Sequence record: NZ_CP027239.1 | Length of the DNA stretch: 64,000 bases | DNA from: a plasmid | Direction: 5' to 3' (one strand) | In this document: positions 17,993 to 62,749 of the stretch, one piece after another | Position numbering within the stretch: the first letter of the stretch is position 1 | Layout: every line of letters starts with the position of its first letter | The notes under the pieces: model-generated | The model's input: only the letters and a program-made list of their open reading frames with translations | What the model was told of the DNA's origin: nothing | The model's database searches: none | Translations under genes and position numbers: made by a program

Positions 17993-19563
17993 GGGTCAGC
18001 CTGTAGGTCGCCCGGGCCTGCCAGTTCAGGCGATCTGGAGGCCGCCGAGCCCGGTGGCGCCGATATGACCGTGGAGCTTTCGCAGGTTGTGGCAGGCAGC
18101 GAGCAGTAGCCATTCACCGCGGGCGGCGTCCAGACCGCGAATCAGGAGTTGCTTGCCGTTCTGCAGGGTGCTCATCTGTCCGAAGACCGGTTCGACGATC
18201 GCTTTGCGCCGGGCGTAGACCGCTCGGCCTTTCTTCGTGGCGAGCTTGCGGGCCATGCGCTGCTTGTCCGTGGCGCTGGCCGGGATCGGTCCCCGGGGGG
18301 CGATCGGCGCCGGTTCCCCGCTGCGCTGTCGTCCGGTGGCGATGAAGAACTCGGTGCCCTGCTCGCCGGTGACCTCGGCGGAGGCGGCGAGGTTCGCGGC
18401 TGAGCAGTACCCGGCATCGGCGAGCATCTGCTTCGGGGCCTGCCCCGTGTTGCTGATGGCCTGCTCGGTCATGGGGATGAGGTTGCCGACGTCGGCGGCA
18501 CAGTCGTTGACCTCGGCCGCCACGATGATCTGATGGGCGGCATCGACCACGGCCTGGCCGTTGTAGCACTGAGCGAACGACCCGTCCCCGGTGAGCATGA
18601 TCTTCGACTCCGGGTCGGTGAAGTTGCGCTGGGCCTTCGGCCTGGGCGTGGCGCGCTCGGCGGCCTCAGCGGCCTTCTGCGCGACGGTGTCTTCGTCTTC
18701 GCCCTTACCGCGGGCCTTAGCCTCAGCCTTCTCCGCCGCATCGGCGGCGGCGTCGGCTTCCAGAGCAGCTTTGGCCTGGCGCAGCTTGACCAGGCGAGAC
18801 TCTCGGCGGGCCAGCTCATCGGGCAGCTCGTCCCCGCGCCGGTTCTTGCCGAACTTGGCGTCCTCGGCCTTGTCGATGGCCTCGGCGGCGGCCAGCAGAT
18901 CGGAGACCTCCTGGGCCAGTACCTTCTCCTTGTCCGTCAGCCGCGCGTACGACATGGCCTTGCGTTTGGAGGCGTTCGCCCGCAGCTTCGTCCCATCCAG
19001 CGCGACCTGTCCAAGCGTGACCATCCCGGCGGCCTGGCACAACGCCAACGCCTGCAAGAACAGGTTGCCCAGCGCGGCCAGGTGCCTCTTGCGAAACCTG
19101 GCGATCGCGCGGTAGTCCGGGGCCGCCCCGGCCGCCAACCACCGGAAAGCGACGATGTCGGTGCAGGCCTTCTCGATCCCGCGGGAGGAGCGCACCCCCG
19201 TGGTGTAGCCGAAGATCAGCAACCGCACCATCAACCGCGGATCGTACGGCGGGGCCCCGCGCCCCTCCTGGTAGGAGACGTAGATCCGCGATAAATCCAG
19301 GTGCTCATCGACCAGATCCGCCACGAACCGTGCCAGATGATCGGCCGGAAGCCAGTCATCCAGCGACGGCGGCAGCAACAACCCCTGGCCCGGGTCGAAC
19401 GCCCGAAATGTCTTGCCTGCGCCCACCGGCTCGACCTCGCCCTGCCGGTCAGCCCGCTCGACGCGGAACTCCTCGGCGGCGAACAACCCTTCCTCGCCCA
19501 TGACGACAATTATCCCGCCGAACCCGCCCCATCAGCGGACCTGAACTGGCGTGTTACTGACCC
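17993..19563 (-). mobile_element. IS1182-family insertion sequence (~1.57 kb)
   Basis: Imperfect terminal inverted repeats GGGTCAG...GCCAGTTCAGG at both ends. Encloses the transposase ORF. Confidence 0.7.
18026..19501 (-). CDS. IS1182-family (IS5-like DDE) transposase
   Basis: 491-aa ORF. N-terminal PYDPRLMVRLLIFGYTTG motif and C-terminal DDE region typical of IS1182/ISL3-like transposases. Confidence 0.85.
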   Translation of the reverse strand: MGEEGLFAAEEFRVERADRQGEVEPVGAGKTFRAFDPGQGLLLPPSLDDWLPADHLARFVADLVDEHLDLSRIYVSYQEGRGAPPYDPRLMVRLLIFGYTTGVRSSRGIEKACTDIVAFRWLAAGAAPDYRAIARFRKRHLAALGNLFLQALALCQAAGMVTLGQVALDGTKLRANASKRKAMSYARLTDKEKVLAQEVSDLLAAAEAIDKAEDAKFGKNRRGDELPDELARRESRLVKLRQAKAALEADAAADAAEKAEAKARGKGEDEDTVAQKAAEAAERATPRPKAQRNFTDPESKIMLTGDGSFAQCYNGQAVVDAAHQIIVAAEVNDCAADVGNLIPMTEQAISNTGQAPKQMLADAGYCSAANLAASAEVTGEQGTEFFIATGRQRSGEPAPIAPRGPIPASATDKQRMARKLATKKGRAVYARRKAIVEPVFGQMSTLQNGKQLLIRGLDAARGEWLLLAACHNLRKLHGHIGATGLGGLQIA

Positions 19564-20872: not shown

Positions 20873-21922
20873 ATGCCCGAGATGACGCCCGGACTGGTGG
20901 CGAAACTGCCCGATAAGGCTCGTGATCGAACGCTGACCATGGCTGCAGCCAAGGGCGGAATCGGCAAGACCACCACAACCGCGCAGGTCGCCTATCCGAT
21001 CGCGCAGTTCGGGCTGCGAGTGCTCCTGATCGACCTCGACGCCGTCGCCGGGCTGTCCACCATCCTCGGCGCGATCGACGACGGCCCTGGGGCAGTGGAG
21101 TTCCTGGACTCGCCGGGCATCGACAAGGACGAGTGCGTGCGCCGCCCGCCCGCGTGGCAGCCCAGCCCTGACGTGCCTTTCAGCGAGGGAGGCGCGCTCC
21201 TTCCTGGCGGATGCGTCGACATCATCCCAGCGACGCCGGGCATCGCAGAGTCGGTCGGCCGGCAGGACCCTCGCTCGATCAAGCGTCTACGACGAGCGCT
21301 CAACGACGACGACTTCGTCCTCGACCGCTACGACCTGGTGATGATCGACATTCCCGGCGCCGACAGCGTCATCGTCGACATGGCAATGCAGGCATCGCGC
21401 AACCTGGTCTTGACTCTGCTGCCGGAATCCCAAGGGCTCCGAGGGTTCAGCCGCACCGTTCTCCGTGCGAAGCAGGCGTACGAAGAGGATGGCCTGAACT
21501 TCAACGTGATCGGCGCAGTGACCAGCCGATACGAGAGGAACCGCACTGAGCACAAGGACGTCATGCGCGTCACTCGCAAGTTCTTGGCCGAGCAGCTCGG
21601 ACCCTCGACTCTGTGGCTCGGACTTCCCATCCCGGCCCGGGCGTCCATCAGCGATGCCAACCGGGCACAACGCCCACTGGCATCGCGGAACGCCTGGCGG
21701 GACAACATCTCCAATCGAACGCGCGGCATGGACGCTGTCGCGGCCTTTACGGCGATCGCCATCGCGATCGTCCGCGACGTTCTCGGTGACGAGCAGGCCG
21801 ACGAGATCGTTCGAGAATTTACCGAGGTCGGGCTGGGGGAGTACCCGACCAATCTGCTGCTTTCCGGTGTCGGAGTGACGCGTGCTCCCCACCAGGACGA
21901 CGACTACCCCGAGGAGGACTGA
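20873..21922 (+). CDS. parA: ParA/Soj-family partition ATPase
   Basis: Deviant Walker A KGGIGKTT. 349-aa ORF. GAGGAG RBS. Confidence 0.85.
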   Translation: MPEMTPGLVAKLPDKARDRTLTMAAAKGGIGKTTTTAQVAYPIAQFGLRVLLIDLDAVAGLSTILGAIDDGPGAVEFLDSPGIDKDECVRRPPAWQPSPDVPFSEGGALLPGGCVDIIPATPGIAESVGRQDPRSIKRLRRALNDDDFVLDRYDLVMIDIPGADSVIVDMAMQASRNLVLTLLPESQGLRGFSRTVLRAKQAYEEDGLNFNVIGAVTSRYERNRTEHKDVMRVTRKFLAEQLGPSTLWLGLPIPARASISDANRAQRPLASRNAWRDNISNRTRGMDAVAAFTAIAIAIVRDVLGDEQADEIVREFTEVGLGEYPTNLLLSGVGVTRAPHQDDDYPEED

Positions 21923-26562: not shown

Positions 26563-28191
26563 ATGAGTCCGAAACCGTGGGAAGTCACTGACGACGACTT
26601 GGCGCAGGGGCTCGGGCCTACCAGTGCCACCAAGGGCGACGAGCTCGACGACCCCGACGGCTACGGCCTGCTCGACAGCGACGACGACTTCGAGGAGTTG
26701 GACGACCCGTGGTCGAGTGACAAGCCAGCCGCGGCGCCGGCGGCGACACCGGCCCGCCCCATCGAGCCGCAATCCGAGTCCCCGAACTTAGCCCCCGCTG
26801 CCACGGAGCCCGAGCCCGCCGCAGAGCCGACGACCGTCGACCACACGGCCCCGGACGAGGATCTGTCCGGCGAGGCTCCTCCGGGGCCCAGCCACGAGCC
26901 TGAGAGCTCGGCGCCGGCTTCGGAGGCGTTCGCCCCAGCACAGCCGGAGCAGGAAACTCCTGCGGTCGACGACGCCGACGACTTCGACGACTTCTGGGAT
27001 GAACCTGTCGCCCCCGACGATCGCGCTCCGGCCACCGCGGGCTACGACTTGAGCGCCTCGCCGGGTGGTGCGGGCGAACCAGCCCCGCGGACAGAGCCCG
27101 CCCCAGGCGTCGGCGGGACCGCGGCAGATCACGATGTCAGCAGCGCCGACCCCGACGATGAGGACCCGGACGGCACGCTCACGGTGACGTTGCGTCGCAA
27201 TCGGGAACCGCAGCAGCCCGGCCCGACCCGGTCGTACCGGACCTCGAGCGAGGCGCGTCGCCCGGTCAAGCCGTCGGAGCGGCGCCACAAGATGGATGTG
27301 GCGCCGGTCAAGCAGGGGCCGATGGCCCGCATGAGGAAGATGCTGACCGGAGACGCCGATGTCTCGCGGGCACATGAGACGTCGGCGAAGCGGGACACGA
27401 TCCGACCGCTGAACGTGGTGGTGCTCGGCAAGAAGGGCGGCGTGGGCAAGACCGTCGTCACCACGCTGCTCGGCCACACTTTCGCGTCTGTGCGTAAGGA
27501 CCGTGTCTTGGCGGTGGATGCCTCTCCGACAGGTGGAAACCTGTCCGCCCGATGCCCGAAAGAGGGGCTGGGCACGGTGGTGTCGCTGCTCGATCAGCTC
27601 GAGTACGTCACGTCCTACGCCAACGTGCGGGAGCACACCGCCAAGGGCGACACCGGGCTGGAGGTGCTGGGAGCCGATGTGACCAGACCTCAGCGGCCGA
27701 TCACCGGCCCGGACTACCGACGGTTGATGGACGAACTGCGCCGCCACTACCAGCTGATTTTGAGCGATACTCCGGGCGACATCACCACTGCCTCCGCGGA
27801 CGGCCCCGACGGGATCGTGCCGGCCTTGCTGGACGAGGCGGATTTGCTGGTGCTGGTCGCGGAGGGTGTCGACGGCGCCAACGCGGCGACCTGGCTGGTG
27901 AATTGGCTCAAGGCCCGCCTTCGGGACACCGATGACCGTCATCTGGAGAAGCTGCTCGATGACCTGATCGTGGTGGTGAGCTCCCGGTCTCCCAGGAGCA
28001 ACGCCAAGCCGGACCGGATGGCGAAGTATTTCAGCGAGGAGATCGCTCGACGGGTGGTACTGCTGCCGTTTGATCCGGTCGTCGAAGGTGGGTTGGAGAT
28101 TGACTACAACCTGATCTCGCCGAAGACGCGAAAGGCGATGCTGGAGCTGGCAGACGCGGTTACTGGTTCGGATGCGTTCACCGGTCGGTGA
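26563..28191 (+). CDS. MinD/ParA-family P-loop ATPase with ~280-aa acidic/Pro-rich disordered N-terminus
   Basis: VVLGKKGGVGKTVVTTLLG Walker A and ...LILSDTPGD in the C-terminal domain. Low-complexity N-terminal region. Confidence 0.8.
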   Translation: MSPKPWEVTDDDLAQGLGPTSATKGDELDDPDGYGLLDSDDDFEELDDPWSSDKPAAAPAATPARPIEPQSESPNLAPAATEPEPAAEPTTVDHTAPDEDLSGEAPPGPSHEPESSAPASEAFAPAQPEQETPAVDDADDFDDFWDEPVAPDDRAPATAGYDLSASPGGAGEPAPRTEPAPGVGGTAADHDVSSADPDDEDPDGTLTVTLRRNREPQQPGPTRSYRTSSEARRPVKPSERRHKMDVAPVKQGPMARMRKMLTGDADVSRAHETSAKRDTIRPLNVVVLGKKGGVGKTVVTTLLGHTFASVRKDRVLAVDASPTGGNLSARCPKEGLGTVVSLLDQLEYVTSYANVREHTAKGDTGLEVLGADVTRPQRPITGPDYRRLMDELRRHYQLILSDTPGDITTASADGPDGIVPALLDEADLLVLVAEGVDGANAATWLVNWLKARLRDTDDRHLEKLLDDLIVVVSSRSPRSNAKPDRMAKYFSEEIARRVVLLPFDPVVEGGLEIDYNLISPKTRKAMLELADAVTGSDAFTGR

Positions 28192-28594: not shown

Positions 28595-28693
28595 CGGGGA
28601 CTGGACGCTGTTGCTGCGGCAGGTGTCGGAGTCCCCTCATAGGGTCTGACCACTGAGAAGACGATGCGCACAGACGGCAGGGAGGGCAGCGGC

Positions 28694-31141
28694 ATGGCAT
28701 TGACAACTGTGCAGCGGGCCCGCCTGCGGTCGGCCGCCACCGCTCTGGTCAAGTCCGGGGACAGTACGGCCGCACTGCGTGCCGCGACTCGCCCTGACCC
28801 GTGGCCGCAGGGCCTGGCACAAGTGGTGGTGGAGGAACTGTCGTCGCGCCGGCCGAAAATGATGGCCTTAGGCGTGGACGTGGCGCTACTGCCGGTGCCG
28901 GCATCTGCCGAGGAAGCCTCTCCGTGGGCGCTCTCCGGGACGGTGCGGGAGCAAGCCCCGGTTGTCGATTGGTCGGTGCCGGACAAGGTGGAGGTTCGGA
29001 CCGCCGCGGACGTGCTGGCCGATGCCGCTAGCGCGGGCCCACTCGAGTTCGATGCGACCTTGGATGGGCTGCGCGGGGTGCCGATCTCGGACCTGGACGG
29101 GGTGGGGGAGAAGGCCCTGGAGCGACTCACTGGCGCGGGGATCACCTCGGTGTACGACCTGATGATGTGGGTGCCGCTGCGATACGTGGACCGCACCCAG
29201 ATCACCCCGCTGGCGGATCTGCAGCCGGGGATGGAGGCGACGTTCATCGCACGGGTCAAGAGGGTGGACACCAACTGGGAGAAGTCGTACGTCCGGTTGA
29301 CCGTCGGGGACAACGGCGCCGACGTGTCGATCATGTTCTTCCGGGCGATGTGGATGCGGTCGCGCTTCCGCAGTCGTGACCTGGTGATCGTGCAGGGCGA
29401 CATCGGTGACTTCAATGGCCAGCTGTCGATGAGTTCCCCGTTGATGGAGAAGCTCGACGATGCTGGCGCACCGCTGATGGCGATCTACCGGCAGTCGGCG
29501 AAATACGAGGTCAACACGTGGATGCTGCGTCGTGCGGCGACCGATGCGCTGCGCCGCATCCCAGCCCTGGACGATCCGATCCCTGACCGGCTCGTGTCGG
29601 GAAGGGGCCTGCCGGGCCGGCTGGAGGCGCTGCAGGCGGTGCACCTGCCGGACGATAAGCCGTCGGCCGACCGCGGGCGTGACCGTCTGGCCTACGACGA
29701 GCTGCTGCGTCTGCAGTTGGCGCTCGGGGTGCTGCGGCACGCTCAAGCCGCCGAGCCCGGCGTGACCCACGCACCCACCGGCAGGCTGACCCGCCGCTGG
29801 CTCGAGTCGCTGCCGTGGCCGCTGACCGGTGCCCAGTCGCGGGCCCTGGAGCAGGTGCGCGCGGACATGACCTCCGCCCAGCCGATGAACCGGCTCCTGC
29901 AGGGCGACGTCGGCGCCGGCAAGACCATGGTGCTGGCCGGTGCCGCGTTGATGGCTGTCGAGGGCGGCTACCAGGCGGCACTGCTGGCCCCGACGGAGAT
30001 CCTGGCCCGCCAGCACCATGAGGAGCTGGCCGAGGCGCTGGGCCCGCTGGGGCTGCGCGTGGACCTGTTGGTGAGCAAGAACCTGCCGCGGCCCCGCAAG
30101 GAGGTGCTGGCCGGCGTGGCCGACGGCGCAGTCGACATCGTCGTCGGCACCCATGCCCTGCTGACCGACAAGGTCGTCTTCCACCGGCTCGGTGTGGCGT
30201 TGATCGACGAGCAGCATCGGTTCGGGGTGGACCAGCGGGCCCTGCTCGCCGCGAAAGGCCCGGACGGGGCGGCGCCGGACATCCTGCAGGCCACAGCCAC
30301 GCCGATTCCTCGCACCGCGGCGATCACGACCTACGGCGATCTGGCGTTGTCGATCCTGGACGAGAAACCTCCGGGCCGGTCGCCGATCGACACCCGCTGG
30401 GTGGAGCACCAGGTCAGCACCGCCAACCGGGCGGCCGGGCCATGGCAGGCGATCCGCGAGCAGGTCGCCGCGGGCCATCAGGCGTTCGTGGTGTGCCCGC
30501 GGGTGGTGGTCTCCGGCAAGGAGTCGGAGACCAAGCAGGCCGCCGCGGCGCAGGAAACCGCAGACGAGCTCCGGGACGGCGCGCTGGCCGGGCTGCGCAT
30601 CGGGCTGGCGACGGGCAAGCAGCACCCGGATGAGCGGGCTGCGCAGATGGCCGCGTTCAAGGCCGGTGAGCTCGACGTGCTGGTCGCTACCACGGTCATC
30701 GAGGTCGGGGTGTCGGTGCCGAACGCGACGGTGATCGTGATCCTCGACGCCGGTAACTTCGGCTTGGCGCAGCTGCATCAGCTGCGAGGCAGAGTGGGTC
30801 GCGGTAAGCATCCCGGGCAGTGCTGGCTGGTCGCCGAGACCAAGGGCGCCGACGGTGCGGCCCGCATGGAGGCGATGGTCGAGACCGACGACGGGTTCGT
30901 GCTGTCGGAGAAAGACCTGGAGATCCGCGGGCCCGGGGCGATGACCGGCACCGCGCAAGCCGGCCGCGATGCCGGGCTGCGGGTAGCGGACTTGCTGCGT
31001 GATGGGCGTATCCACCTGGCGGCCCGCGCGGACGCCCAGTCGATCCTGCAGAGCGACCCGAAGCTGATGCGGCACCGCACCCTCAAGACCGAGGTGGAGC
31101 TGGCGCTGGGGGAGGACGCCCACTACCTGACCAAGAGCTAG
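28694..31141 (+). CDS. recG: RecG-family ATP-dependent DNA helicase
   Basis: Helicase motifs GDVGAGKT, DEQHRFG, ATPIPRT and QLRGRVGRG. C-terminal EIRGPG...GTAQAG. N-terminal HhH/wedge region. GGGAGGG RBS before ATG 28694. Confidence 0.9.
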   Translation: MALTTVQRARLRSAATALVKSGDSTAALRAATRPDPWPQGLAQVVVEELSSRRPKMMALGVDVALLPVPASAEEASPWALSGTVREQAPVVDWSVPDKVEVRTAADVLADAASAGPLEFDATLDGLRGVPISDLDGVGEKALERLTGAGITSVYDLMMWVPLRYVDRTQITPLADLQPGMEATFIARVKRVDTNWEKSYVRLTVGDNGADVSIMFFRAMWMRSRFRSRDLVIVQGDIGDFNGQLSMSSPLMEKLDDAGAPLMAIYRQSAKYEVNTWMLRRAATDALRRIPALDDPIPDRLVSGRGLPGRLEALQAVHLPDDKPSADRGRDRLAYDELLRLQLALGVLRHAQAAEPGVTHAPTGRLTRRWLESLPWPLTGAQSRALEQVRADMTSAQPMNRLLQGDVGAGKTMVLAGAALMAVEGGYQAALLAPTEILARQHHEELAEALGPLGLRVDLLVSKNLPRPRKEVLAGVADGAVDIVVGTHALLTDKVVFHRLGVALIDEQHRFGVDQRALLAAKGPDGAAPDILQATATPIPRTAAITTYGDLALSILDEKPPGRSPIDTRWVEHQVSTANRAAGPWQAIREQVAAGHQAFVVCPRVVVSGKESETKQAAAAQETADELRDGALAGLRIGLATGKQHPDERAAQMAAFKAGELDVLVATTVIEVGVSVPNATVIVILDAGNFGLAQLHQLRGRVGRGKHPGQCWLVAETKGADGAARMEAMVETDDGFVLSEKDLEIRGPGAMTGTAQAGRDAGLRVADLLRDGRIHLAARADAQSILQSDPKLMRHRTLKTEVELALGEDAHYLTKS

Positions 31142-35443: not shown

Positions 35444-35584
35444 CCTCGTACGACGTGCAGGCCGCCGCCCGCTGGGTTGGTGGGGTCGCGAGGCGGTGAG
35501 TGAGTGGCTTGCAGACTGCTGCACCGCGCCGGCTGCAGCGGAGAGTGAGTGCAGCCCGTTCACCCACCCCTCAGGAGGCTCACC

Positions 35585-35959
35585 ATGACCGCACACCGTG
35601 GAGTGCTCGTCGAACCCGACGGCACCGTCAGCATTGAGACCTTCGACTCCGTAGATCTGGAGGCGCTCAGGACAACGGTCGGCGCACGCTACGTCGATGT
35701 CGTCCGGGTCGCGAGCATGGGCGGTGCCGATGATCTGACTCTGGACGCCTGGGTGGATGACGAGGGGCTGTTCACCGCCGAGTTCAACCCGGTCGCCAGT
35801 TTCATGGTCGCCAGCCTGCTGGGGGCGACCTGCCAGCGCTTTCACGGCAAGATGCTGTTCGTGGCCGGAAACACGACCACCGGTGACAGCGTGGGCCTGC
35901 CGGCGGTCACCGAGAAGGCACTTGTCGACTTGGGGGAGTACCTGGCCAAGTCGCTGTGA
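35585..35959 (+). CDS. DUF3846-like protein (paralog 1 of 3)
   Basis: LTLDAWVDDEGLFTAEFNPVAS...FHGKMLFVAG. Similar to the genes at 56534 and complement(62276..62749). Confidence 0.6.
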   Translation: MTAHRGVLVEPDGTVSIETFDSVDLEALRTTVGARYVDVVRVASMGGADDLTLDAWVDDEGLFTAEFNPVASFMVASLLGATCQRFHGKMLFVAGNTTTGDSVGLPAVTEKALVDLGEYLAKSL

Positions 35960-53903: not shown

Positions 53904-54146
53904 CCCCTCCCAACGGCCCCGGCCCCAGCACGCGGGGCCGGGGCCCTCTCGCTGCCGCCCACCCGGCCGCTCTGTCCAAACGCCCGCAGGTCGCTCGTGG
54001 ACCTGCCGCAGCGGCATGACCGGCCCATACCTTTACTCCAGCTCATTGACAGGTGGGTTCTCTTCTCCGCCTCGCAGATCTGCTGCACCGGCGCGAGGCA
54101 CCGAGACGATATGGGCACACATCCAGCCAGCACAGAGGAGCAGGCC

Positions 54147-54284
54147 ATGAAGGCAACAGACACGGTCAGGCAGGGAGCAACCGCCCTGGCCCGCCACCTG
54201 GCGGCCGGAACGGGAGCGGGCCTGCGGCTGCTCGTGCTGGTGACCATCGACCACGCTCTCGACACCCCGCTGCCCCGCTACTGA
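54147..54284 (+). CDS. 45-aa small ORF (uncertain)
   Basis: GAGGAGCAGGCC-ATG. CTGCTGCACC 64 nt upstream, the same spacing as for confirmed genes. Confidence 0.35.
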   Translation: MKATDTVRQGATALARHLAAGTGAGLRLLVLVTIDHALDTPLPRY

Positions 54285-54343
54285 CGACCGCCCGGCCGCG
54301 CGGCTCAACAAGACGTGGCCACAGTCCCGCGAAAGGACATCCC

Positions 54344-55072
54344 ATGAGCACTGAAACCACCCACTTTGACCGCGCCAAGATGACGGACCGTGTCGGCAAG
54401 CTGTTCGCCAAGGCTGCCTCCACCTCCAGCGAAGAGGAGGCGTCGGCGCTGCTGGAGAGGGCGTTCGCGCTGAGCGCCAAGTACGGCATCGACGAGGCGC
54501 TGGCCCGCTCGGGTGGCGACATCGACGCGGCGGAGATCGTCACCGTCACTATCGACGTCACCGGCCGTTACCAGCCCGACCAGATCGGCCTGGTCGCCTC
54601 GATAGCGAACGCGTTGCACTGCAAGGTGGTCACGGTCCAGGCTGGCCAGAACCGTAAGTGCATGGTGGTCGGTGCTCGCCGTCACACCGATCGCGTGACG
54701 ATGCTTGCGGGCTACCTCATTGGCATCATGCTCACGCGCGCCGCCAAGACGCGTCCCTCGCATCCGGGAGTGCCGACCGTGGCCCATCGCAAGAGCTTCA
54801 TGACGGGGTTCGCCTTCGCGGTCGGGTCCAGGTTGGCTGCGGCGGAGGACAACGCCGTGCACGACAGCGTCGACACCAAGGGTGCGGCACTGGTGCTGGC
54901 CAGCGATGCCGACCGTGCGGCGGCCGAACTTGACCGTCAGTTCCCCACCGCGGTGCCCGGTCGGCGCCGAAAGGTCGGCGTCTCGGGAATCGACGAAGGG
55001 CGCAGCGCCGCCAACGACCTCGACCTCGGCCAGGCCCGGTTCGCCGGCCACCGGCACGCCCTGACCGCCTGA
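54344..55072 (+). CDS. DUF2786-like protein
   Basis: N-terminal RVGKLFAKAASTSSEEEASALLERAFALSAKYGIDEAL resembles the DUF2786 consensus seen in phage and plasmid proteins. Confidence 0.6.
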   Translation: MSTETTHFDRAKMTDRVGKLFAKAASTSSEEEASALLERAFALSAKYGIDEALARSGGDIDAAEIVTVTIDVTGRYQPDQIGLVASIANALHCKVVTVQAGQNRKCMVVGARRHTDRVTMLAGYLIGIMLTRAAKTRPSHPGVPTVAHRKSFMTGFAFAVGSRLAAAEDNAVHDSVDTKGAALVLASDADRAAAELDRQFPTAVPGRRRKVGVSGIDEGRSAANDLDLGQARFAGHRHALTA

Positions 55073-55296
55073 CCGCCTGACCCCAGCGGCGGTCAACGGA
55101 CCAGCCCCCGGCGGATCCCCGCCGGGGGCTGCACTTTCGCCCGAGCTCGCTGGCCCCCCTGTCCGCTTCGCCCGCCGAACGCACACCGCCAGCAGGCCCT
55201 GACATGGCGTGTGATCTGCGCGTTTATGGCTGCTGCAGTTTCCGGACGGCGCGAAACGATGAGTCGGTCAGCGCATCCGGATGGAAGGGGAACAGC

Positions 55297-55557
55297 ATGG
55301 CAATTCCGAAGAGGCTCAAGACGGTATTCGCCCTAGCGCAGGACCACGGGTGGACCGTCACAGAGACCAAGGACGGGCACCCCGCCCTAGTTCCCCCGAA
55401 GGGGACGGTCGATCACCAAGGCAGGCCGGTGGCGCTCGTAGCGTTCGCGAAGACCCCCTCGGACCACCGCGCCGACAAGAACGCCATCGCGGCGCTGCGT
55501 CGGCTAGGGCTCGGCGTCCCGGCAAAGGGGCATACTAAGAAGAAGGCACAACGATGA
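55297..55557 (+). CDS. hypothetical basic small protein
   Basis: GGAAGGGGAAC RBS. CTGCTGCAG 64 nt upstream. Confidence 0.55.
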   Translation: MAIPKRLKTVFALAQDHGWTVTETKDGHPALVPPKGTVDHQGRPVALVAFAKTPSDHRADKNAIAALRRLGLGVPAKGHTKKKAQR

Positions 55558-55922
55558 TCTGGGAAGAGGTGACCGCAATGACGAACCGCCACTGGCAGGT
55601 GTTCGCCGATCTGGCGGCCCGCGACCACGCCGCGCACGCGCGGGTGCTCGAGGCGGTCCCGGGCGCGGCGCTGACGCACTTCGCGGACGGCAGTGCAGAA
55701 GCCACGATGATCATCGACGCACCCACCCAGCACGAAGCCACCCTGTTCGTGCGGCTGGCGCTGCTGGAGCTCGACTTGGAAGCCACCGGCCTGTCGGTAG
55801 AAGAGACCGGCCCAGACGACGTTGGTGAGCCGTTCGAGCCACTGGACTTGGCGGACCCGGCGATGGCCCGGGCGCAGGAGTGGGCGCACTCCCTGGCCCG
55901 ACCCATCCCGGCCCTGACCTGA
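55554..55922 (+). CDS. hypothetical protein
   Basis: Start overlaps the previous stop (ATGA). Confidence 0.55.
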   Translation: MIWEEVTAMTNRHWQVFADLAARDHAAHARVLEAVPGAALTHFADGSAEATMIIDAPTQHEATLFVRLALLELDLEATGLSVEETGPDDVGEPFEPLDLADPAMARAQEWAHSLARPIPALT

Positions 55923-56396: not shown

Positions 56397-56533
56397 CCCC
56401 AGCTGCCGTCGGACAGGCCCGGGAGCATGCTGCCGGCCGGGCCCGCGAGCTCGCTCAGGGGTACGGGTCACCACACTCCGCGCGACGGCCGAGAAGGTGG
56501 GATCCACACCCACCCCTGCTCGAAAGGCCCACC

Positions 56534-56962
56534 ATGACGATCGCCTCCCTGAACACCGTGACGGGGCTGCTCATCGCAGTCGACGGCACCACGAGCCGCC
56601 AACCCCTCCACCGCGTCGAAGGCACCGTCCTGGCCGGCCTGCAGGGCCTCGTGGGTGCCGAGGACGTCGAGTCGGTGCCACTGAGGGACTGCCCCAACAA
56701 GCCGGGTAGGACAGTCGACGCGTGGGCAGCGGCCGGAAGCGACCTGCAGCCCAACTGGGTAGCCACCGCGCTGGCAGCCCTGGTCAGTGACGATCACCGC
56801 CGCGTCCTGCACGGGCCGGTTGTACTGCTGACGACAGACCAGCGCACCGGGCGTTGTCACAGCCTGCCCTCCGAGCTGGTGGGTGGGATCGGAACCGCCG
56901 CGTCCCGCCTGGCGCAGGCCTCGACGATCGCAGGGAAGGTCGAGCATGCTCTGCGCGCCTGA
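56534..56962 (+). CDS. DUF3846-like protein (paralog 2 of 3)
   Basis: LLIAVDGTTSRQP...LHGPVVLLTTDQRTGRCHSLPSELV matches the genes at 62276 (-) and 35585. Confidence 0.6.
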   Translation: MTIASLNTVTGLLIAVDGTTSRQPLHRVEGTVLAGLQGLVGAEDVESVPLRDCPNKPGRTVDAWAAAGSDLQPNWVATALAALVSDDHRRVLHGPVVLLTTDQRTGRCHSLPSELVGGIGTAASRLAQASTIAGKVEHALRA

Positions 56963-57049
56963 CCCGCCCAGCTAGAAGCGGCTCCACGGCATGCCCACCC
57001 CTTAGGGTTTTGCTCATCGGAACAAAACTCTCAGGGGAGGCGACTGCGG

Positions 57050-59158
57050 GTGTGTATCGCAGAAGACCAGCCCGGCGGGCCCAAAAGGTGCCCAGCCGAC
57101 ACCGCCAAAGCGGTCGCTGACGCAGAAGCTCGAGTGCAAGCGATCCTCGCCCAGCGAGAGGAAATCGAAGCCAACCTCGCCCTGATCGAAGCGAAGTTCC
57201 TGTCCGGTGACCCTGCAGCGGTCGCCGCGGACCTGGATAGCGCCAAGACCGACCTCGACTTCGCCAAGACCGACCTCGAGGAAGCGAGCGAGCACCACGG
57301 CCTTCAAGAGAAGCTCGCCCAGGCACAGAAGACGCCAGCGCAGACCTACCTCGAATCCACCGAAGCAGACCTCGCCCAAGCCGAACTGGACGCCGACGAA
57401 GCCCGCAAGGCCTACCAGCGGGTACAGCGCAAGACCTCCGCCGCGAAGAAGAACCTCGCCGAAGGCGAGACGACCTCCCCCGAACTGGAAGAGCTCGAGC
57501 AGCAGAAGCTCGAAGCCAAACTCCACTGGGACACCTGCAAGGCAGATGTGAAGCTGCAGGAAAAGCGCGTCGCCGAAGCCGGCCAGTTCATCAAAGACGA
57601 GAACCTCGGCCGTGAATGGGCCGCATCCACAGACCTGCCAGAAGAAGAGCGGGATGCCTACCTGGCTGGGCTGTCCGACGAGGATCTCGAGGCGATCGGC
57701 CGGTACCAGGCCCACGGTCTCCGGGCCGAGATTGACGAAGCGCTGCCCGTTGGCGGGACTCCGACGATCGACGACCGTGAACGTGACACCAGCATCTACG
57801 GTCCTGGCACCATCACCTGGCACCACGGTGGCGCGGTCGAAGAGGTCGAAGGTCGAATCCTGGACGCCGACACCGCCATCTACCGCAAGGGCTACGGCGA
57901 CTTTTACATCCTGCTCAAAAACGGTGACGAGTACGAAACTGTCGGGCAGGCCGATTCCAAGGCCGCAGCAGTGGCCCAGGCGAACCAGATTCCGGTCCTG
58001 ACCCAGATGGAGCCGCTACCTGACGGTGCCACTGAGCTGCAACGCGAGGTGTGGCAAGCCAAGGCGGAACTGCGGGCAGGTGCAGCGGAGCAAGCCGCGG
58101 TGGTCTCATCGGCGAAGGCCCAAGCCGAGGCGCGGGCAAAGCTCGCCGACGTCGAGGGGGCAGCCCGGGACCGCGTGGTGGACCTCAGCGTGGTGGGCCC
58201 GGTCCAGGCTGAGGCCAGGGACGGCCGGCTGCGGCACGTCAAGCGCGAACGGGAGAAGGCCGCCGACGCCGCTGGAGCCAAGGCCCGCGAGGAGGCGCTG
58301 GCTGCTGGAGCGTCGGCGGCGGACGCGGACAAGGCGTACGAGACGGCCCGGCGGAAGTCGCTGGGCACCGTGACGCTGCGCGGCGGGGTGATCCCGCATT
58401 TCAACCACCGCATCCCCCCCGAGAGTCTGGGGCAAGACGGCTACAACGCCCTGGCGCGCAGTGGCATCCGCGCATGGGGCGTGGAAACGGCGAACGACTA
58501 CTCCGTGATCGGGAAACGACTCGGCAGCCCGCAGTCGTGGGGGTTCCACGGTGGGCCGCACAATCTGCAGACGTCGAATATCGACGAGCTGACCAACCGG
58601 GCCAGGCCCTTCCTGAACAACGAGCTCACCGCAGCGGAGCGCAAGTCCCTGACGGCCTACACGGGCGGGATCTACCAGAGCATCAACGCCGCGGTCACCG
58701 GGCGGGACAAGAACCCGGCGTCGAGCATCGCCACCCACGTCTCCCGAATTGAGTCAGCGTTCGGCAAGTTGGCGGCCTCCCAGAAGCACGCGGAGCCGAT
58801 GGTCGTCGTGCGTGGCACGGGCGTTCCGTCGGGTTGGAAGGGCACCACGAAGGAATTTCTGGACAAGACCTTCACCCCAGGCAGTCGCGTCGAGATTGGA
58901 AAAATTACCTCTACCAGCACCAAAACGTCGATCGCTTCCGGGTTCGGCAACGGTAAGGACCCGTACGTCATGGCGATCCGCTCACGCACCGGGCTGGCGG
59001 TCAAGAGCATCTCCAGTCACAGTCACGAAGATGAGGTGCTGATGACGATGGGCACCAAGATGCGCTGCGTCGACATCCAGGAGAAGGGGATGCACGGCCG
59101 CCCGACCGTCTACCTCGTGGAAGAGGACCTCGTCGCTGAGGCCGAAGATGGGCTGTGA
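57050..59158 (+). CDS. C3/VIP2/SpvB-type mono-ADP-ribosyltransferase domain protein with long N-terminal coiled-coil/acidic region
   Basis: C-terminal domain has LTAAERKSLTAYTGGIYQSINAAVTG (the E..A...YT...Y..IN NAD-pocket helix), VVVRGTG (Arg), KITSTSTKTS (STS motif) and HEDEVLM (E-x-E). N-terminal ~450 aa is Ala/Glu/Lys-rich. Confidence 0.85.
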   Translation: MCIAEDQPGGPKRCPADTAKAVADAEARVQAILAQREEIEANLALIEAKFLSGDPAAVAADLDSAKTDLDFAKTDLEEASEHHGLQEKLAQAQKTPAQTYLESTEADLAQAELDADEARKAYQRVQRKTSAAKKNLAEGETTSPELEELEQQKLEAKLHWDTCKADVKLQEKRVAEAGQFIKDENLGREWAASTDLPEEERDAYLAGLSDEDLEAIGRYQAHGLRAEIDEALPVGGTPTIDDRERDTSIYGPGTITWHHGGAVEEVEGRILDADTAIYRKGYGDFYILLKNGDEYETVGQADSKAAAVAQANQIPVLTQMEPLPDGATELQREVWQAKAELRAGAAEQAAVVSSAKAQAEARAKLADVEGAARDRVVDLSVVGPVQAEARDGRLRHVKREREKAADAAGAKAREEALAAGASAADADKAYETARRKSLGTVTLRGGVIPHFNHRIPPESLGQDGYNALARSGIRAWGVETANDYSVIGKRLGSPQSWGFHGGPHNLQTSNIDELTNRARPFLNNELTAAERKSLTAYTGGIYQSINAAVTGRDKNPASSIATHVSRIESAFGKLAASQKHAEPMVVVRGTGVPSGWKGTTKEFLDKTFTPGSRVEIGKITSTSTKTSIASGFGNGKDPYVMAIRSRTGLAVKSISSHSHEDEVLMTMGTKMRCVDIQEKGMHGRPTVYLVEEDLVAEAEDGL

Positions 59159-59180
59159 TTGGGGCAGTTGATCGTCGGTG

Positions 59181-59190
59181 CTGCTGCACC
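59181..59190 (+). promoter_or_regulatory. CTGCTGCACC conserved upstream motif (representative copy)
   Basis: ~85 nt upstream of ATG 59274. Confidence 0.5.
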
Positions 59191-59273
59191 GCGCAAGCCC
59201 CATGATTGACTCGATTCATACCAACGGACTGAGCCTTACACCGAGGAGGACTCACCACCGGAAAGGACACGAC

Positions 59274-59480
59274 ATGAAGGTCAGCAAGGAACAGATCCAG
59301 ATTCTGAACGAGCACATCGCAGAGAACCCGGACCAGGGGCCGCACGAGATCGCCCGCTACATCGCCCGCATCACTGACATGGGTGAAGACGACACTTTCG
59401 CCCTGGCCACCATCGTGAAGCACCTCAAGAACGGCGACCCGCTCCCGGCCGCGTACCTGGCCGAAGACCAGGGCGACTGA
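59274..59480 (+). CDS. hypothetical small acidic protein between the transferase and hydrolase genes
   Basis: GGAAAGGACACGAC-ATG. 68 aa. Its stop overlaps the hydrolase start. Confidence 0.5.
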   Translation: MKVSKEQIQILNEHIAENPDQGPHEIARYIARITDMGEDDTFALATIVKHLKNGDPLPAAYLAEDQGD

Positions 59481-60583
59481 TGAGCCAGGCAGACAACACG
59501 GCCCGCTACGCCAACGCGCTGATCGGCGGAGCCGCCGGCGACGCCTGGGGCTACCAGGTCGAGTTCACCAAGTACCCGAAGATGCCCGCCTACCCCGTGA
59601 GCCCGCCGGCCGGCGACTGGATCATCTCCGATGACACCCAGATGCTGCTGGCGACCCACAACGCGCTGCACGATGTCGTGGACTTCGATGACATCGACGA
59701 GGTGGCCGAGGTGATCCTCGACCGGTACCTGGACTGGGCGGTAGACCCAGACAACAACCGAGCGCCCGGGACGACGTGCATGAGTGCGCTCTGGAACATC
59801 GAATCGGGCAAGCATTGGAACGCCGGCGGTGCCCGCTACTCGGCGGGCTGCGGCGCGGTCATGCGGCTGGCCCCGGCTGCGTTCGCCCCGCAGCAGTACC
59901 GGCGAGGTCTGGCCGTGCTGCAGGCCGTCGTCACCCACCGCCACCCCAAGGCCGCCCTGTCGGCGCTGCTGCTGTGCGATGCCTTCACCGTCGCCGGCCA
60001 GGCACCGCTCCTGGAGCACGCCCGAGCTGACCTGATGACGCTCGCGACCCGCCTGCCGGATGCGTGGGCAGACGACGACTACCTCCTGCGAGTCCTGGCC
60101 CTGCTGACCGACGACCCGCACGCCTACCTGTCTTCCGCACTTGGCCCCGAGCCCGGCCGTCGCGGGCCGTCGATGGAGCAGGCGTTCACCGCAGCGGCAG
60201 AACGTCTGGCCATCGAAACCCACTCCACCGGCTGGGCTGGTGACCCCTGCGCCGGAATCGGCGAAGGTTGGGACGCAGCAACCGCCACCGCACTGGGGAT
60301 GCTGGCCGCCGACCTGCACCGCAACGGCCGCCTCGGCCCGGTGGAGGCCATTGCCTGGGCGGCGACCAGCAACGGCGACTCCGACTCAATCGCCACCCTC
60401 GCCGGCGCCCTCATCGGAGCCGCCAGCAGCGACCCCGGATTCTGGGGCGACCACCAGCTGGGCCTATGCCTGGAGCCGCGCTACGCAGACGAAATCGACA
60501 ACGCCGCATCGCAGGGCCCCGCAAGCACCCTGGCCGGGGTATCAGCAGCCATGGATCGACCAGTGGGCCTGACAGGCGTCTAG
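59480..60583 (+). CDS. ADP-ribosylglycohydrolase (DraG/Tri1-like)
   Basis: GGAAGDAWGYQVEF and SDDTQMLLA motifs characteristic of the ADP-ribosylglycohydrolase family. 367 aa. Confidence 0.85.
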   Translation: MSQADNTARYANALIGGAAGDAWGYQVEFTKYPKMPAYPVSPPAGDWIISDDTQMLLATHNALHDVVDFDDIDEVAEVILDRYLDWAVDPDNNRAPGTTCMSALWNIESGKHWNAGGARYSAGCGAVMRLAPAAFAPQQYRRGLAVLQAVVTHRHPKAALSALLLCDAFTVAGQAPLLEHARADLMTLATRLPDAWADDDYLLRVLALLTDDPHAYLSSALGPEPGRRGPSMEQAFTAAAERLAIETHSTGWAGDPCAGIGEGWDAATATALGMLAADLHRNGRLGPVEAIAWAATSNGDSDSIATLAGALIGAASSDPGFWGDHQLGLCLEPRYADEIDNAASQGPASTLAGVSAAMDRPVGLTGV

Positions 60584-60760
60584 AAGGCCGAGTGTTCCGC
60601 AGGCTTGAAGACGCCGCGCGGGTCAAGGAGTCGGTGCGGGTCTTCACCACGACGGGGCAGACCTTCGTTGGCCTCCCGTCGTTCCGGCACTCCTGCGCGC
60701 GGTCGGCTTTTCTCTGACGGCGGAGGAGATGACGTCCATGGCGGGACGATGCGTGACTGC

Positions 60761-62275: not shown

Positions 62276-62749
62276 TCAGCTCTGGTCTTCGCCGCGGGCG
62301 TGGAAGGCGGTGATGGACTCGGTGATTCCGTCGACGATTTCGGGGATCGAGGTGATGACTCCGACCTCGTTCTGCAGTAACGTCAGCGCCTCGGCGCTCA
62401 GGGGCAGACTGTCGCCTGTCTCGGGATTCCCGGCCTGCAGAACCACTGGTCCGTGAAGGACCGCGTTGTCTGCGCCGAGTGCCTGGGCGAGCACTGTTGC
62501 CGCCATGTTCCGGGGCCGCTCGTAGGCGGACATGCGCCCGTACCAGAAGTCGAGTGCCATGCCGTTCAGCACGGCGGCAAGGCGCGGCCCGGGCCGTCGG
62601 TTGAGGGACGGGTTGACGGGCAGGACCTCGGCTCGTCGGGCGCCGATCAGAGGGTAAATGTCCTCCAGGTCGTGAATGTGCGGCTGAGTCTCGACAGGCC
62701 AGGTCGTGCCGTCGACGGCGATCACGAGTGCGGTGGCTTGGTTGCTCAT
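62276..62749 (-). CDS. DUF3846-like protein (paralog 3 of 3)
   Basis: ALVIAVDGTT...LHGPVVLQAGNPETGDSLPLSAEAL. Confidence 0.65.
   Translation of the reverse strand: MSNQATALVIAVDGTTWPVETQPHIHDLEDIYPLIGARRAEVLPVNPSLNRRPGPRLAAVLNGMALDFWYGRMSAYERPRNMAATVLAQALGADNAVLHGPVVLQAGNPETGDSLPLSAEALTLLQNEVGVITSIPEIVDGITESITAFHARGEDQS

Follow-up and report, generated by a model that had tools for sequence, protein, structure and literature searches.

A three-gene ADP-ribosyltransferase cassette of actinobacterial plasmid backbones, possibly a toxin with a split antidote

What does an ADP-ribosyltransferase (ART) do on a plasmid when an apparent eraser of its modification is encoded just downstream? The question is raised by a 64,000-nucleotide stretch of plasmid DNA (sequence record NZ_CP027239.1; hereafter the window), in which a gene for a 702-aa protein ending in an ART domain is followed by an open reading frame (ORF) of 68 codons and a gene for an ADP-ribosylglycohydrolase (ARH). 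A first reading made from the letters alone (the sequence-only reading) had placed this cassette, in hedged terms, among effector–immunity pairs, systems of reversible ADP-ribosylation or addiction modules, a class that is compatible with all our findings. Comparison of related loci showed that the constant companion of the transferase is the small protein, and that the hydrolase is separable from it. We tentatively favour, at a little short of an even chance, a tripartite toxin–antidote module that sits in plasmid backbones and would act inside the carrier cell.

On the enzymology the evidence is strong: the sequences predict an ART toxin domain of the arginine type and an eraser of the ARH1 type, both intact. 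Residues 522–680 of the transferase matched PF03496 (E = 1.4e-9, 38 bits against a cut-off of 23.4) and PF01129 (E = 1.4e-8, 34.8 bits against 22.3). The motifs quoted in the sequence-only reading are all present (YTGG 537–540, VVVRG 585–589, TSTSTK 620–625 and HEDEV 659–663), and R588, S621-T-S623 and E660-D-E662 are invariant in an alignment of 23 homologues with identities down to 40%, bearing out its claim that the protein ends in an R-S-E ART domain. The AlphaFold2 (AF2) model of the protein had a predicted local distance difference test score (pLDDT) of 85.7 and a predicted template modelling score (pTM) of 0.75. Foldseek matched the fold to ExoS, C3, VIP2, Plx2A, Vis, CDTa and Ia with E-values of 4e-8 to 1e-6; target template modelling (TM) scores were 0.55–0.71 for single-domain ART chains and 0.32–0.36 for the two-domain VIP2, CDTa and Ia and full-length Certhrax. 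An ART–ARH pair from Listeria (PDB 8za7) was also matched by the ART domain (E = 1.8e-7, target TM-score 0.71). The STS and ExE residues of the family profile align with those of ExoT and ExoS; structure prediction and catalytic-residue alignment, both proposed as checks at the outset, agree on the assignment. A phmmer search of the PDB with the whole protein gave no match, while the family profile gave weak matches to ExoS, ExoT, Vis and Tre1 in the ART domain and coiled-coil matches elsewhere. The ExE form of the ARTT motif marks an arginine acceptor in the C2/iota/ExoS/ART2 class. On the basis of this motif and of the ARH1-like partner, we predict that the enzyme modifies one or more arginines of a conserved cellular protein; this target, likely to be both conserved and essential in Mycobacteriales, would be interesting in its own right.

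The hydrolase matched PF03747 (E = 1.2e-36, 127.3 bits against a cut-off of 26.2) over residues 13–315, covering profile positions 2–278 of 287, as the sequence-only reading had anticipated. It carries GDAWG at 20–24, SDDTQ at 50–54 and GDSDS at 299–303. Among solved structures it is closest to ARH1 ADP-ribosylarginine hydrolases (E about 2e-7 to 6e-7), with whose motifs GDA.GY and S50-D51-D52-T53 align; the second metal motif, G299-D300-S301-D302-S303, was read from the sequence alone. Both metal motifs, SDDT and GDSDS, are kept in plasmid and phage homologues, and the enzyme is predicted to remove ADP-ribose from arginine.

The hydrolase had been taken for the partner of the transferase and the small ORF for an incidental one; across 32 ART loci, this was reversed. 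A profile hidden Markov model found the small protein in all 32 loci, next to the ART on its downstream side in 31 and at a distance of 7 kb in the remaining one, with a second copy in two of them, while the hydrolase lies in the operon in 15. The protein from the window (68 aa, isoelectric point (pI) 4.65) is 100% identical to Dietzia WP_106386726.1 and belongs to a family of 55–75 aa proteins with the motif L-T-x-E-Q-L-D-E-I...G-M-x-P-x-x-I-A...G-R-x-A-D-L-D. Searching the databases with the profile yielded 98 clusters, all of small proteins from Mycobacteriales or other Actinomycetota, and every divergent member whose neighbourhood was inspected sits in an ART locus. The small protein is the universal and exclusive partner of the ART. 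It diverges fastest of the three proteins (44%, against 59% for the ART and 68% for the ARH, in comparison with Dietzia sp.), and its pI is 4.0–4.75 in 14 of 14 members, opposite a catalytic half of the ART that is basic (pI about 9.6). From the universal and exclusive co-occurrence, the fast co-divergence and the charge complementarity we infer that it is a protein-binding inhibitor of the ART, acting as an immunity protein or antitoxin. If it inhibits the ART directly, it would provide a compact new inhibitor scaffold. Comparison with helix-turn-helix (HTH) families gave sub-threshold matches only (HTH_38, HTH_7, DUF433 and KorB-HTH), which, with the uniformly acidic character of the family, makes a classical HTH regulator less likely. 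One source labels a member of the family 'Antitoxin', a label assigned automatically. A variant arrangement was seen in environmental Actinomycetota contigs (L041–L044), where a 724-aa ART stands between two paralogues of the small protein (71 aa upstream and 65 aa directly downstream); these contigs have no ARH, a FitA-like ribbon-helix-helix gene lies nearby, and in L041 and L042 an IS605-family element (Y1 transposase plus OrfB) is found just downstream of the ART.

The hydrolase is distributed differently. It lies in the ART operon in the window and 14 further loci, from Rhodococcus, Prescottella, Dietzia and Aldersonia, in the last of which it is inverted and upstream of the ART; a contig from a Gordonia metagenome-assembled genome (MAG) also has it in the operon. 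In 17 of the 32 loci it is not adjacent on the downstream side, and no ARH was found within the available flanks (10 kb) of the Mycobacterium, Mycolicibacterium and Nocardia ART loci. Two ART-bearing M. avium plasmids carry an ARH about 64 kb from the ART, beside ImmA/IrrE and HTH genes, which rules out its absence from mycobacteria. An ART-less linear plasmid of R. fascians has an orphan ARH, and phages carry relatives at 40–46% identity (two Gordonia phage groups), 35–37% (M. abscessus and M. chelonae prophages) and about 30% (Rhodococcus phages). In a neighbour-joining tree of plasmid and phage copies, with no chromosomal ARHs included, the orphan and unlinked plasmid copies nest in the ART-linked clade, the Gordonia phage copies form its sister and the copy of prophage McProf falls outside. 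The ARH is separable from the ART. The proposed check for co-occurrence of such pairs elsewhere came out positive for plasmids, with the operon in 15 of 32 loci and the ART itself on 41 plasmids of PLSDB, and negative for phages, which carry the ARH without the ART. The phage hydrolases are preceded or overlapped by a 66–68-aa Cys-rich, zinc-ribbon-like ORF (Aleemily gp115–gp114, L051; McProf gp87–gp86, L056); Aleemily gp115 and McProf gp87 are unrelated Cys-rich proteins and were ruled out as homologues of the small protein. In McProf the orphan ARH shares an accessory region with a WXG-100-Tde toxin/Tdi immunity cassette.

Ahead of its catalytic domain the transferase has an N-terminal region of 500 aa for which Pfam gave no match (residues 1–500), only coiled-coil noise. 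It begins with a Cys motif that reads MCRS..GG.RRCPGC...ANGNRR in most homologues, with M1, C2, G9, R13 and C14 invariant in our family alignment A6. The helical hairpins that follow (residues 17–195) are the least conserved part of the protein (24% identity among distant homologues), and the second helical region (pI 9.45) reaches 60% identity in residues 395–438. The block directly before the catalytic domain (the pre-ART block) is always attached to this ART clade, including its short forms, and occurs twice in the 1432-aa relative P0073. Beyond the catalytic domain, the C-terminal helix has the highest identity of all regions among distant homologues (75%), and V690, E692, V695, A696 and E697 are invariant in the 23-sequence alignment. 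A profile of residues 195–505 recovered 30 clusters only from 1.84 billion representative proteins; every complete member of these ends in the ART of the cassette. The region thus belongs to this family alone, which speaks against a delivery module shuffled between proteins. No similarity of the N-terminus to WXG100 or LXG domains was found (hhalign against the WXG100_2 domain of P0073 gave a probability of 0.1%), and no other targeting domain or signal peptide family was detected in the region. With only coiled-coil noise in Pfam besides, a type VII secretion system (T7SS) targeting domain is unsupported.

Relatives with other architectures place the catalytic unit in a wider setting. The short relatives P0075, P0078 and P0079 keep the N-terminal Cys motif; in P0078 and P0079 a short linker alone separates it from the pre-ART block and ART, and in P0075 a shortened helical region does so. 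P0073 has a WXG100-like type VII N-terminus, a long disordered linker and two tandem pre-ART plus ART units, a layout indicating that the catalytic unit serves elsewhere as a secreted toxin domain. Its catalytic motifs are partly degenerate, with LDE and NNE in place of EDE and no Arg in the second unit. A search for further carriers of the N-terminal MCRS module returned short fragments only. The module is also carried by a 254–256-aa protein encoded directly 5' of eccA (MCRS..RRC..C..ANGNRR..VV.HL..GLV.TA..APPS), as at L003:12605-13375 on M. avium pP3-3a and in loci L015, L017, L021–L025, L028, L029 and L033–L037. This protein has a Cys-rich end that is WhiB-like in look (C..C..LC.GCP....C...GV.GG) and no Pfam match; the N-terminal module thus recurs in what may be a regulator of the ESX locus of these plasmids.

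Searches gave 54 clusters of essentially full-length ART homologues, from Gordonia, Dietzia, Rhodococcus, Prescottella, Nocardia, Mycolicibacterium and Mycobacterium; the PLSDB plasmids belong to Rhodococcus (27), Prescottella equi (12, pVAPN virulence plasmids) and M. avium (2). The 700-aa architecture is one closed family restricted to Mycobacteriales-type plasmids. A phage origin of the ART was ruled out, as tblastn found no match among 50,697 phage records and the IMG/VR matches were remote (25–28% identity) and confined to the ART domain. In Rhodococcus and Prescottella the backbone order is ParA-hyp-DUF2637-hyp-hyp-cutinase-(HNH)-ART-small-ARH, and in pVAPN1571 a MobF relaxase gene comes directly after the cassette. 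In mycobacterial plasmids of the pRAW type the order, seen in at least 10 loci, is ART-small-(reverse gene)-[MCRS-module/WhiB-like protein]-eccA-eccB-eccC-PE-PPE. Rather than being a stray accessory gene, the ART cassette belongs to the conserved backbone of two plasmid lineages, where transfer genes (MobF, or ESX) lie beside it. ESX genes were not found near the Rhodococcus, Dietzia and Gordonia loci. Conjugation of pRAW-type plasmids needs both ESX-P1 and a type IV secretion system (T4SS; PMC4173767). Transposon (Tn) insertions just upstream of the ART-operon region of pRAW were recovered in transconjugants, one with higher transfer, the identity of the gene being unverified (PMC4173767). 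Judged by its distance to eccC-P1 (Tn at 68,840), gene p00530 of pRAW (HG917973, M. marinum; homologous loci L033–L038) would correspond either to the ART or to the small gene that comes first in this operon. We found no paper on the ART family, on pVAPN together with an ART, or on the function of DUF3846.

Pairs of an ART toxin and an ARH eraser are already known, as in Tre1–Tri1 and the Listeria pair. Like Tre1–Tri1, the cassette in the window has an R-S-E ART with an ExE motif and a DraG/ARH-type hydrolase directly downstream. It may also share the two modes of protection of that system, block and erase (PMC8120803), in which an N-terminal extension of Tri1 plugs the active site of Tre1 (PMC8120803). 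The Tre1 chains 6drh_B and 6dre_B matched the ART family profile weakly (E = 0.22–0.37), and the Tri1 model (NF041672) scored the ARH at 28.5 bits against a cut-off of 490, so that it is not a Tri1 equivalog. The ARH lacks the Tri1-like extension (its domain starts at residue 13, and the Tri1 model aligned from position 64) and has a separate 68-aa protein in place of the plug; the coupling of this protein to the ARH gives the idea of a 'split Tri1'. The cassette differs further in the family-specific N-terminal region of its ART and in an ARH that can be unlinked or orphan. No PAAR or type VI secretion system domains were found in the ART or its neighbours, and the hosts are Actinobacteria. 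The Listeria monocytogenes pair (8za7) has a superimposable ART domain and belongs to the same class of ART toxin with ARH immunity, but at 20% identity, in a Firmicute and, by the title of its PDB entry, with neither a small third protein nor a large N-terminal region. DraT/DraG also encode an arginine-ADP-ribose writer and a DraG-family eraser together. However, the DraG model (TIGR02662) gave the ARH 26.3 bits against a cut-off of 337, DraT is of a different ART family from the toxin-class (C3/ExoS) enzyme of the cassette, which has no DraT match in Pfam or NCBIfam, and no nif genes lie near the cassette. Membership of either system, as the sequence-only reading had entertained, fails on their defining features, and both stand as analogies only.

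CmdTAC is an ART-based toxin–antitoxin (TA) defence system. The cassette resembles CmdTAC, DarTG and DarHTG in that an ART toxin would be neutralised by an eraser and/or a binding antitoxin, but their ARTs modify DNA or RNA and belong to other clades, and the erasers of DarTG1 and DarTG2 are macrodomain or NADAR proteins. In the case of DarTG1, a phage-borne orphan eraser, AdfN, defeats the ART toxin–antitoxin defence (PMC11825919), a likeness to the Gordonia phages with their sister-clade ARHs, and DarG3 of DarHTG is an antitoxin with an ARH fold (PMC13069673). The T7SS toxin P0073 ends in two copies of the pre-ART plus ART unit, whereas the cassette ART has no WXG100-like N-terminus and its N-terminal region never occurs with other toxin domains. 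Phage MuF-fused and T4 Alt-like ARTs differ from it too, as the cassette ART is not in phage genomes and has no MuF match in Pfam. New here are an antidote putatively split over two genes, a family of small proteins, a 500-aa region that lacks relatives, a place in the backbone of Mycobacteriales plasmids and an eraser clade shared with phages.

On the toxin–antidote reading, the ART would attach ADP-ribose to its arginine target, the small protein would bind and block the basic catalytic part of the enzyme one-to-one and the ARH would strip ADP-ribose from any self targets that had been modified. Jointly, small protein and ARH would amount to the plug and the eraser of Tri1 split over two proteins, an arrangement that would allow the eraser to be lost, moved or carried alone. 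The toxin would be freed once the small inhibitor is no longer replenished: release after plasmid loss would mean addiction, and release when an infecting phage shuts off host expression would mean abortive infection. The ART-less plasmid and the Gordonia phages, with erasers of the same or the sister clade, would then carry them as orphan antidotes, in effect counter-measures, and the N-terminal region may be a regulatory, sensing or target-binding module. The separable ARH, with its orphan copies and the phages that have it without an ART, supports this reading, as do the use of the pre-ART plus ART unit as a toxin in P0073 and the TA-type neighbours (a HicA-like gene upstream in the window and a RES/Xre pair beside the copy on R. 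opacus pR1CP1). The plasmid location of the cassette and two published precedents, AdfN against DarTG1 and the ARH-fold antitoxin DarG3, speak for it as well.

Several points weigh against a toxin–antidote module. Plasmid addiction toxins do not typically have a conserved N-terminal region of such length. The distribution of TA and defence modules tends to be patchy, and this cassette is a conserved backbone gene next to transfer genes in two plasmid lineages. The small protein could be an HTH-like regulator instead. The phage ARHs form a sister clade and are not nested in the ART-linked one, and, with the tree covering plasmid and phage copies only, the phage link may reflect no more than a common actinobacterial ARH subfamily. 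PADLOC-DB v2 gave no match for the ART, the small protein or the ARH at E <= 0.01, so that the trio corresponds to none of its defence-system models. Finally, the toxicity, binding, target and arginine specificity of the cassette are all inferred from sequence.

The strongest alternative, which we consider somewhat unlikely, is an effector delivered in trans with its immunity genes. The ART would be exported by conjugation or by the ESX/type VII machinery into recipients or neighbours, where it would hit a conserved target and kill competitors or condition new hosts (establishment or takeover, as with phage T4 Alt); the small protein and ARH would protect the producer, and orphan ARHs others. 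This would account for the cassette bordering on transfer modules in two backbones that are unrelated (directly 5' of MobF in pVAPN1571 and at the ESX block in at least 10 mycobacterial loci) and for the pre-ART plus ART unit forming the C-terminus of a WXG100 (T7SS) toxin, P0073. A large N-terminal region, a C-terminal toxin and downstream immunity also make a polymorphic-toxin layout, for which orphan immunity is typical, and the invariant acidic C-terminal tail of the ART could be a translocation signal; the pRAW transposon insertions recovered in transconjugants may point the same way. However, the N-terminal 500 aa gave no signal peptide family and no WXG100, LXG or Pfam match, and the region is found only with this ART (the 30 clusters above), unlike those of true polymorphic toxins. 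Nor does delivery fit loci of Rhodococcus, Dietzia and Gordonia that have no ESX genes nearby, or a window in which no relaxase or T4SS gene was found.

A DraT/DraG-style reversible switch, tuning a plasmid or host process such as transfer competence or replication, strikes us as quite improbable. In this scheme the N-terminal region would pick the target and the small protein would regulate the operon. A writer and an eraser in one operon with translational coupling are what such a switch would look like; the conserved full-length architecture of the ART suggests one specific conserved target, the cassette lies in the backbone beside transfer genes, its N-terminal module is common to the WhiB-like putative regulator next to eccA, and the small protein has weak HTH similarity. 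Yet in about half of the loci the ART is catalytically intact although the eraser is unlinked or was not found nearby, an ART-less plasmid and phages carry ARHs as orphans, and a toxin is what the fold class of the ART and the use of its catalytic unit in a T7SS toxin indicate. The uniformly acidic small protein (pI 4.0–4.75) is also unlike DNA-binding HTH regulators, and the DraG equivalog score of the ARH (26 against 337) is far below cut-off. A virulence toxin against eukaryotic host cells, like C3, ExoS or SpvB, is very improbable: the fold does match toxins acting on such cells, and the cassette is on the R. equi pVAPN virulence plasmids and next to ESX loci on M. avium and M. marinum plasmids, but its carriers are mostly soil Rhodococcus, Dietzia, Gordonia and Nocardia, dedicated self-protection genes imply a bacterial target and no export signal was found.

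The plasmids that have the cassette fixed in their backbones matter to medicine and the environment: they include the R. equi pVAPN virulence plasmids, conjugative ESX/T4SS plasmids of M. avium and M. marinum and the large catabolic plasmids of Rhodococcus. A broader and unlikely idea is that arginine ADP-ribosylation is a hitherto unrecognised currency of conflict between mobile elements of Mycobacteriales, in which a backbone ART with new N-terminal machinery of its own, held in check by a new family of small acidic inhibitors, would hit a conserved cellular target during or shortly after conjugative transfer, or act on superinfecting phages, and rival plasmids and phages of Gordonia and Mycobacterium would answer with stand-alone erasers. 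If so, the cassette would be a conjugation-linked takeover or exclusion effector and not an ordinary toxin–antitoxin pair, and it would be implicated in the biology of the R. equi virulence plasmids and of pRAW-type ESX/T4SS plasmids. If the orphan erasers are counter-measures, the system would offer a tractable model of ADP-ribosylation warfare between actinobacterial mobile elements, with a bearing on mycobacterial phage therapy and plasmid spread.

The features of the cassette are collected in table 1. The operon geometry is as the sequence-only reading had described it: all three genes are on the + strand, 116 nt separate the ART stop from the ATG of the small ORF, and the TGA of the latter overlaps the ARH ATG (TGATG), so that translation of the ARH is, from the sequence, coupled to that of the small gene. 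The window DNA is high in GC (about 66–75%), and the third-codon-position GC content (GC3) of the three ORFs, 0.80–0.85, is of coding type. Near-identical Dietzia cinnamea and Gordonia contigs have been called independently as a trio of 702, 68 and 367–382 aa, and the Dietzia cinnamea contigs match the local gene order exactly. The GTG start of the ART is supported by the N-terminus (MC...RCP), which homologues conserve. A promoter and terminator scan and a search for inverted repeats of the origin-of-transfer type gave nothing decisive; the scan called no T-tract terminator, so the evidence for a hairpin at the end of the ARH is weak.

Table 1. Features of the ART cassette, with positions in the window.
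Feature	Position	Strand	Basis or remark
Shine-Dalgarno-like GGGGAGG, 5' of ART GTG	57034-57040	+	read from sequence
ART gene, 702 aa	57050-59158	+	GTG start; ORF call; GC3 0.80
N-terminal Cys motif, aa 1-16, MCIAEDQPGGPKRCPA	57050-57097	+	reduced form of MCRS..GG.RRCPGC module
Two long helical hairpins, aa 17-195	57098-57634	+	AF2 helices 15-47, 55-90, 96-134, 144-193
Conserved central domain, aa 196-330	57635-58039	+	three short helices and five-strand antiparallel beta unit; family-specific
Second helical region, aa 331-438, basic	58040-58363	+	AF2 helices 329-438; C-terminal half highly conserved
Pre-ART block, aa 439-510 (GGVIPHF.H.IPPESLG...RSGIRAWG.ETA.DY...WGF)	58364-58579	+	many invariant columns
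R-S-ExE ADP-ribosyltransferase domain, aa 511-691	58580-59122	+	Pfam, Foldseek, invariant residues
ART catalytic codons	R588 = 58811-58813; S621 = 58910-58912; E660 = 59027-59029; E662 = 59033-59035	+	
Acidic C-terminal helix, aa 692-702, EDLVAEAEDGL	59123-59155	+	invariant
Shine-Dalgarno GGAAAGGA of small ORF	59260-59267	+	read from sequence
Small-protein gene, 68 aa	59274-59480	+	ATG start; ORF call
ARH gene, 367 aa	59480-60583	+	ORF call; DraG/ARH family
ARH metal-site codons	D51-D52 = 59630-59635; D300 = 60377-60379; D302 = 60383-60385	+	
Inverted repeat, 12-nt arms, across ARH stop	60575-60615	+	possible operon-end hairpin, 83% complementary

The neighbours of the cassette in the window are a DUF2786/DUF7168 gene, a HicA-like gene, DUF3846-like genes and orphans. 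Its supposed setting among DUF3846 genes survives in part: the gene at 35549-35959 is a bona fide member (5.4e-7), the one that precedes the ART (56510-56962) stays below the Pfam threshold (E = 0.053), and it and the gene at 62276-62749, the latter by BLASTP, are divergent paralogues. The plasmid-like setting is likewise borne out by ParA genes, an insertion sequence (IS) element, arrays of orphan genes and plasmid homologues, but no replicon could be identified for the window, and no relaxase or T4SS gene was found within its 64 kb. At the nucleotide level, plasmid matches to the window were confined to the ARH segment, which matches Rhodococcus plasmids; none was found at 20.8–31.2 kb. Most other genes of the window have no Pfam family. 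Exceptions are an IS-type DDE transposase (18026-19501, - strand), a ParA (20873-21922), a second, large ParA/MinD-like ATPase with relatives on 109 actinobacterial plasmids (26563-28191) and a RecG-like helicase (28664-31141; wedge, DEAD and Helicase_C). The DUF2786 plus DUF7168 protein (54053-55072; Pfam 7e-11 and 1.7e-6) is called at 242–243 aa in homologous contigs, so that translation probably begins inside the 339-aa ORF. A weak HicA-like match (55204-55557; PADLOC E = 1.9e-4) is followed by an overlapping ORF for a 122-aa acidic protein (55554-55922). The two, which could be a HicAB-type TA pair 1.1 kb upstream of the cassette, are conserved in the Dietzia and Gordonia contigs.

Other plasmids add minor observations on the surroundings of the cassette. 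On pR1CP1 of R. opacus 1CP (L055:3934-6050), the small gene and ARH follow a 5'-truncated ART copy that starts at VIPHFDH within the pre-ART block, which rules out a natural short form; this copy adjoins a TA pair of a RES-family NAD+ phosphorylase and an Xre-type HTH protein. A few genes upstream of the ART, the Rhodococcus, Prescottella and Nocardia backbone encodes a conserved 660-aa 'cutinase family' protein, often with an HNH/GmrSD-like endonuclease gene between (loci L001, L002, L005–L007, L009–L012, L014, L016, L019, L030, L032 and L045). By analogy with phage LysB, this protein could belong to the transfer region and serve to breach the mycomembrane. The Gordonia MAG contigs (L039:8766-9374 and L040:66-674) have a gene for a 202-aa Peptidase_M48 protein two genes upstream of the ART, which is not part of the window and Dietzia layout.

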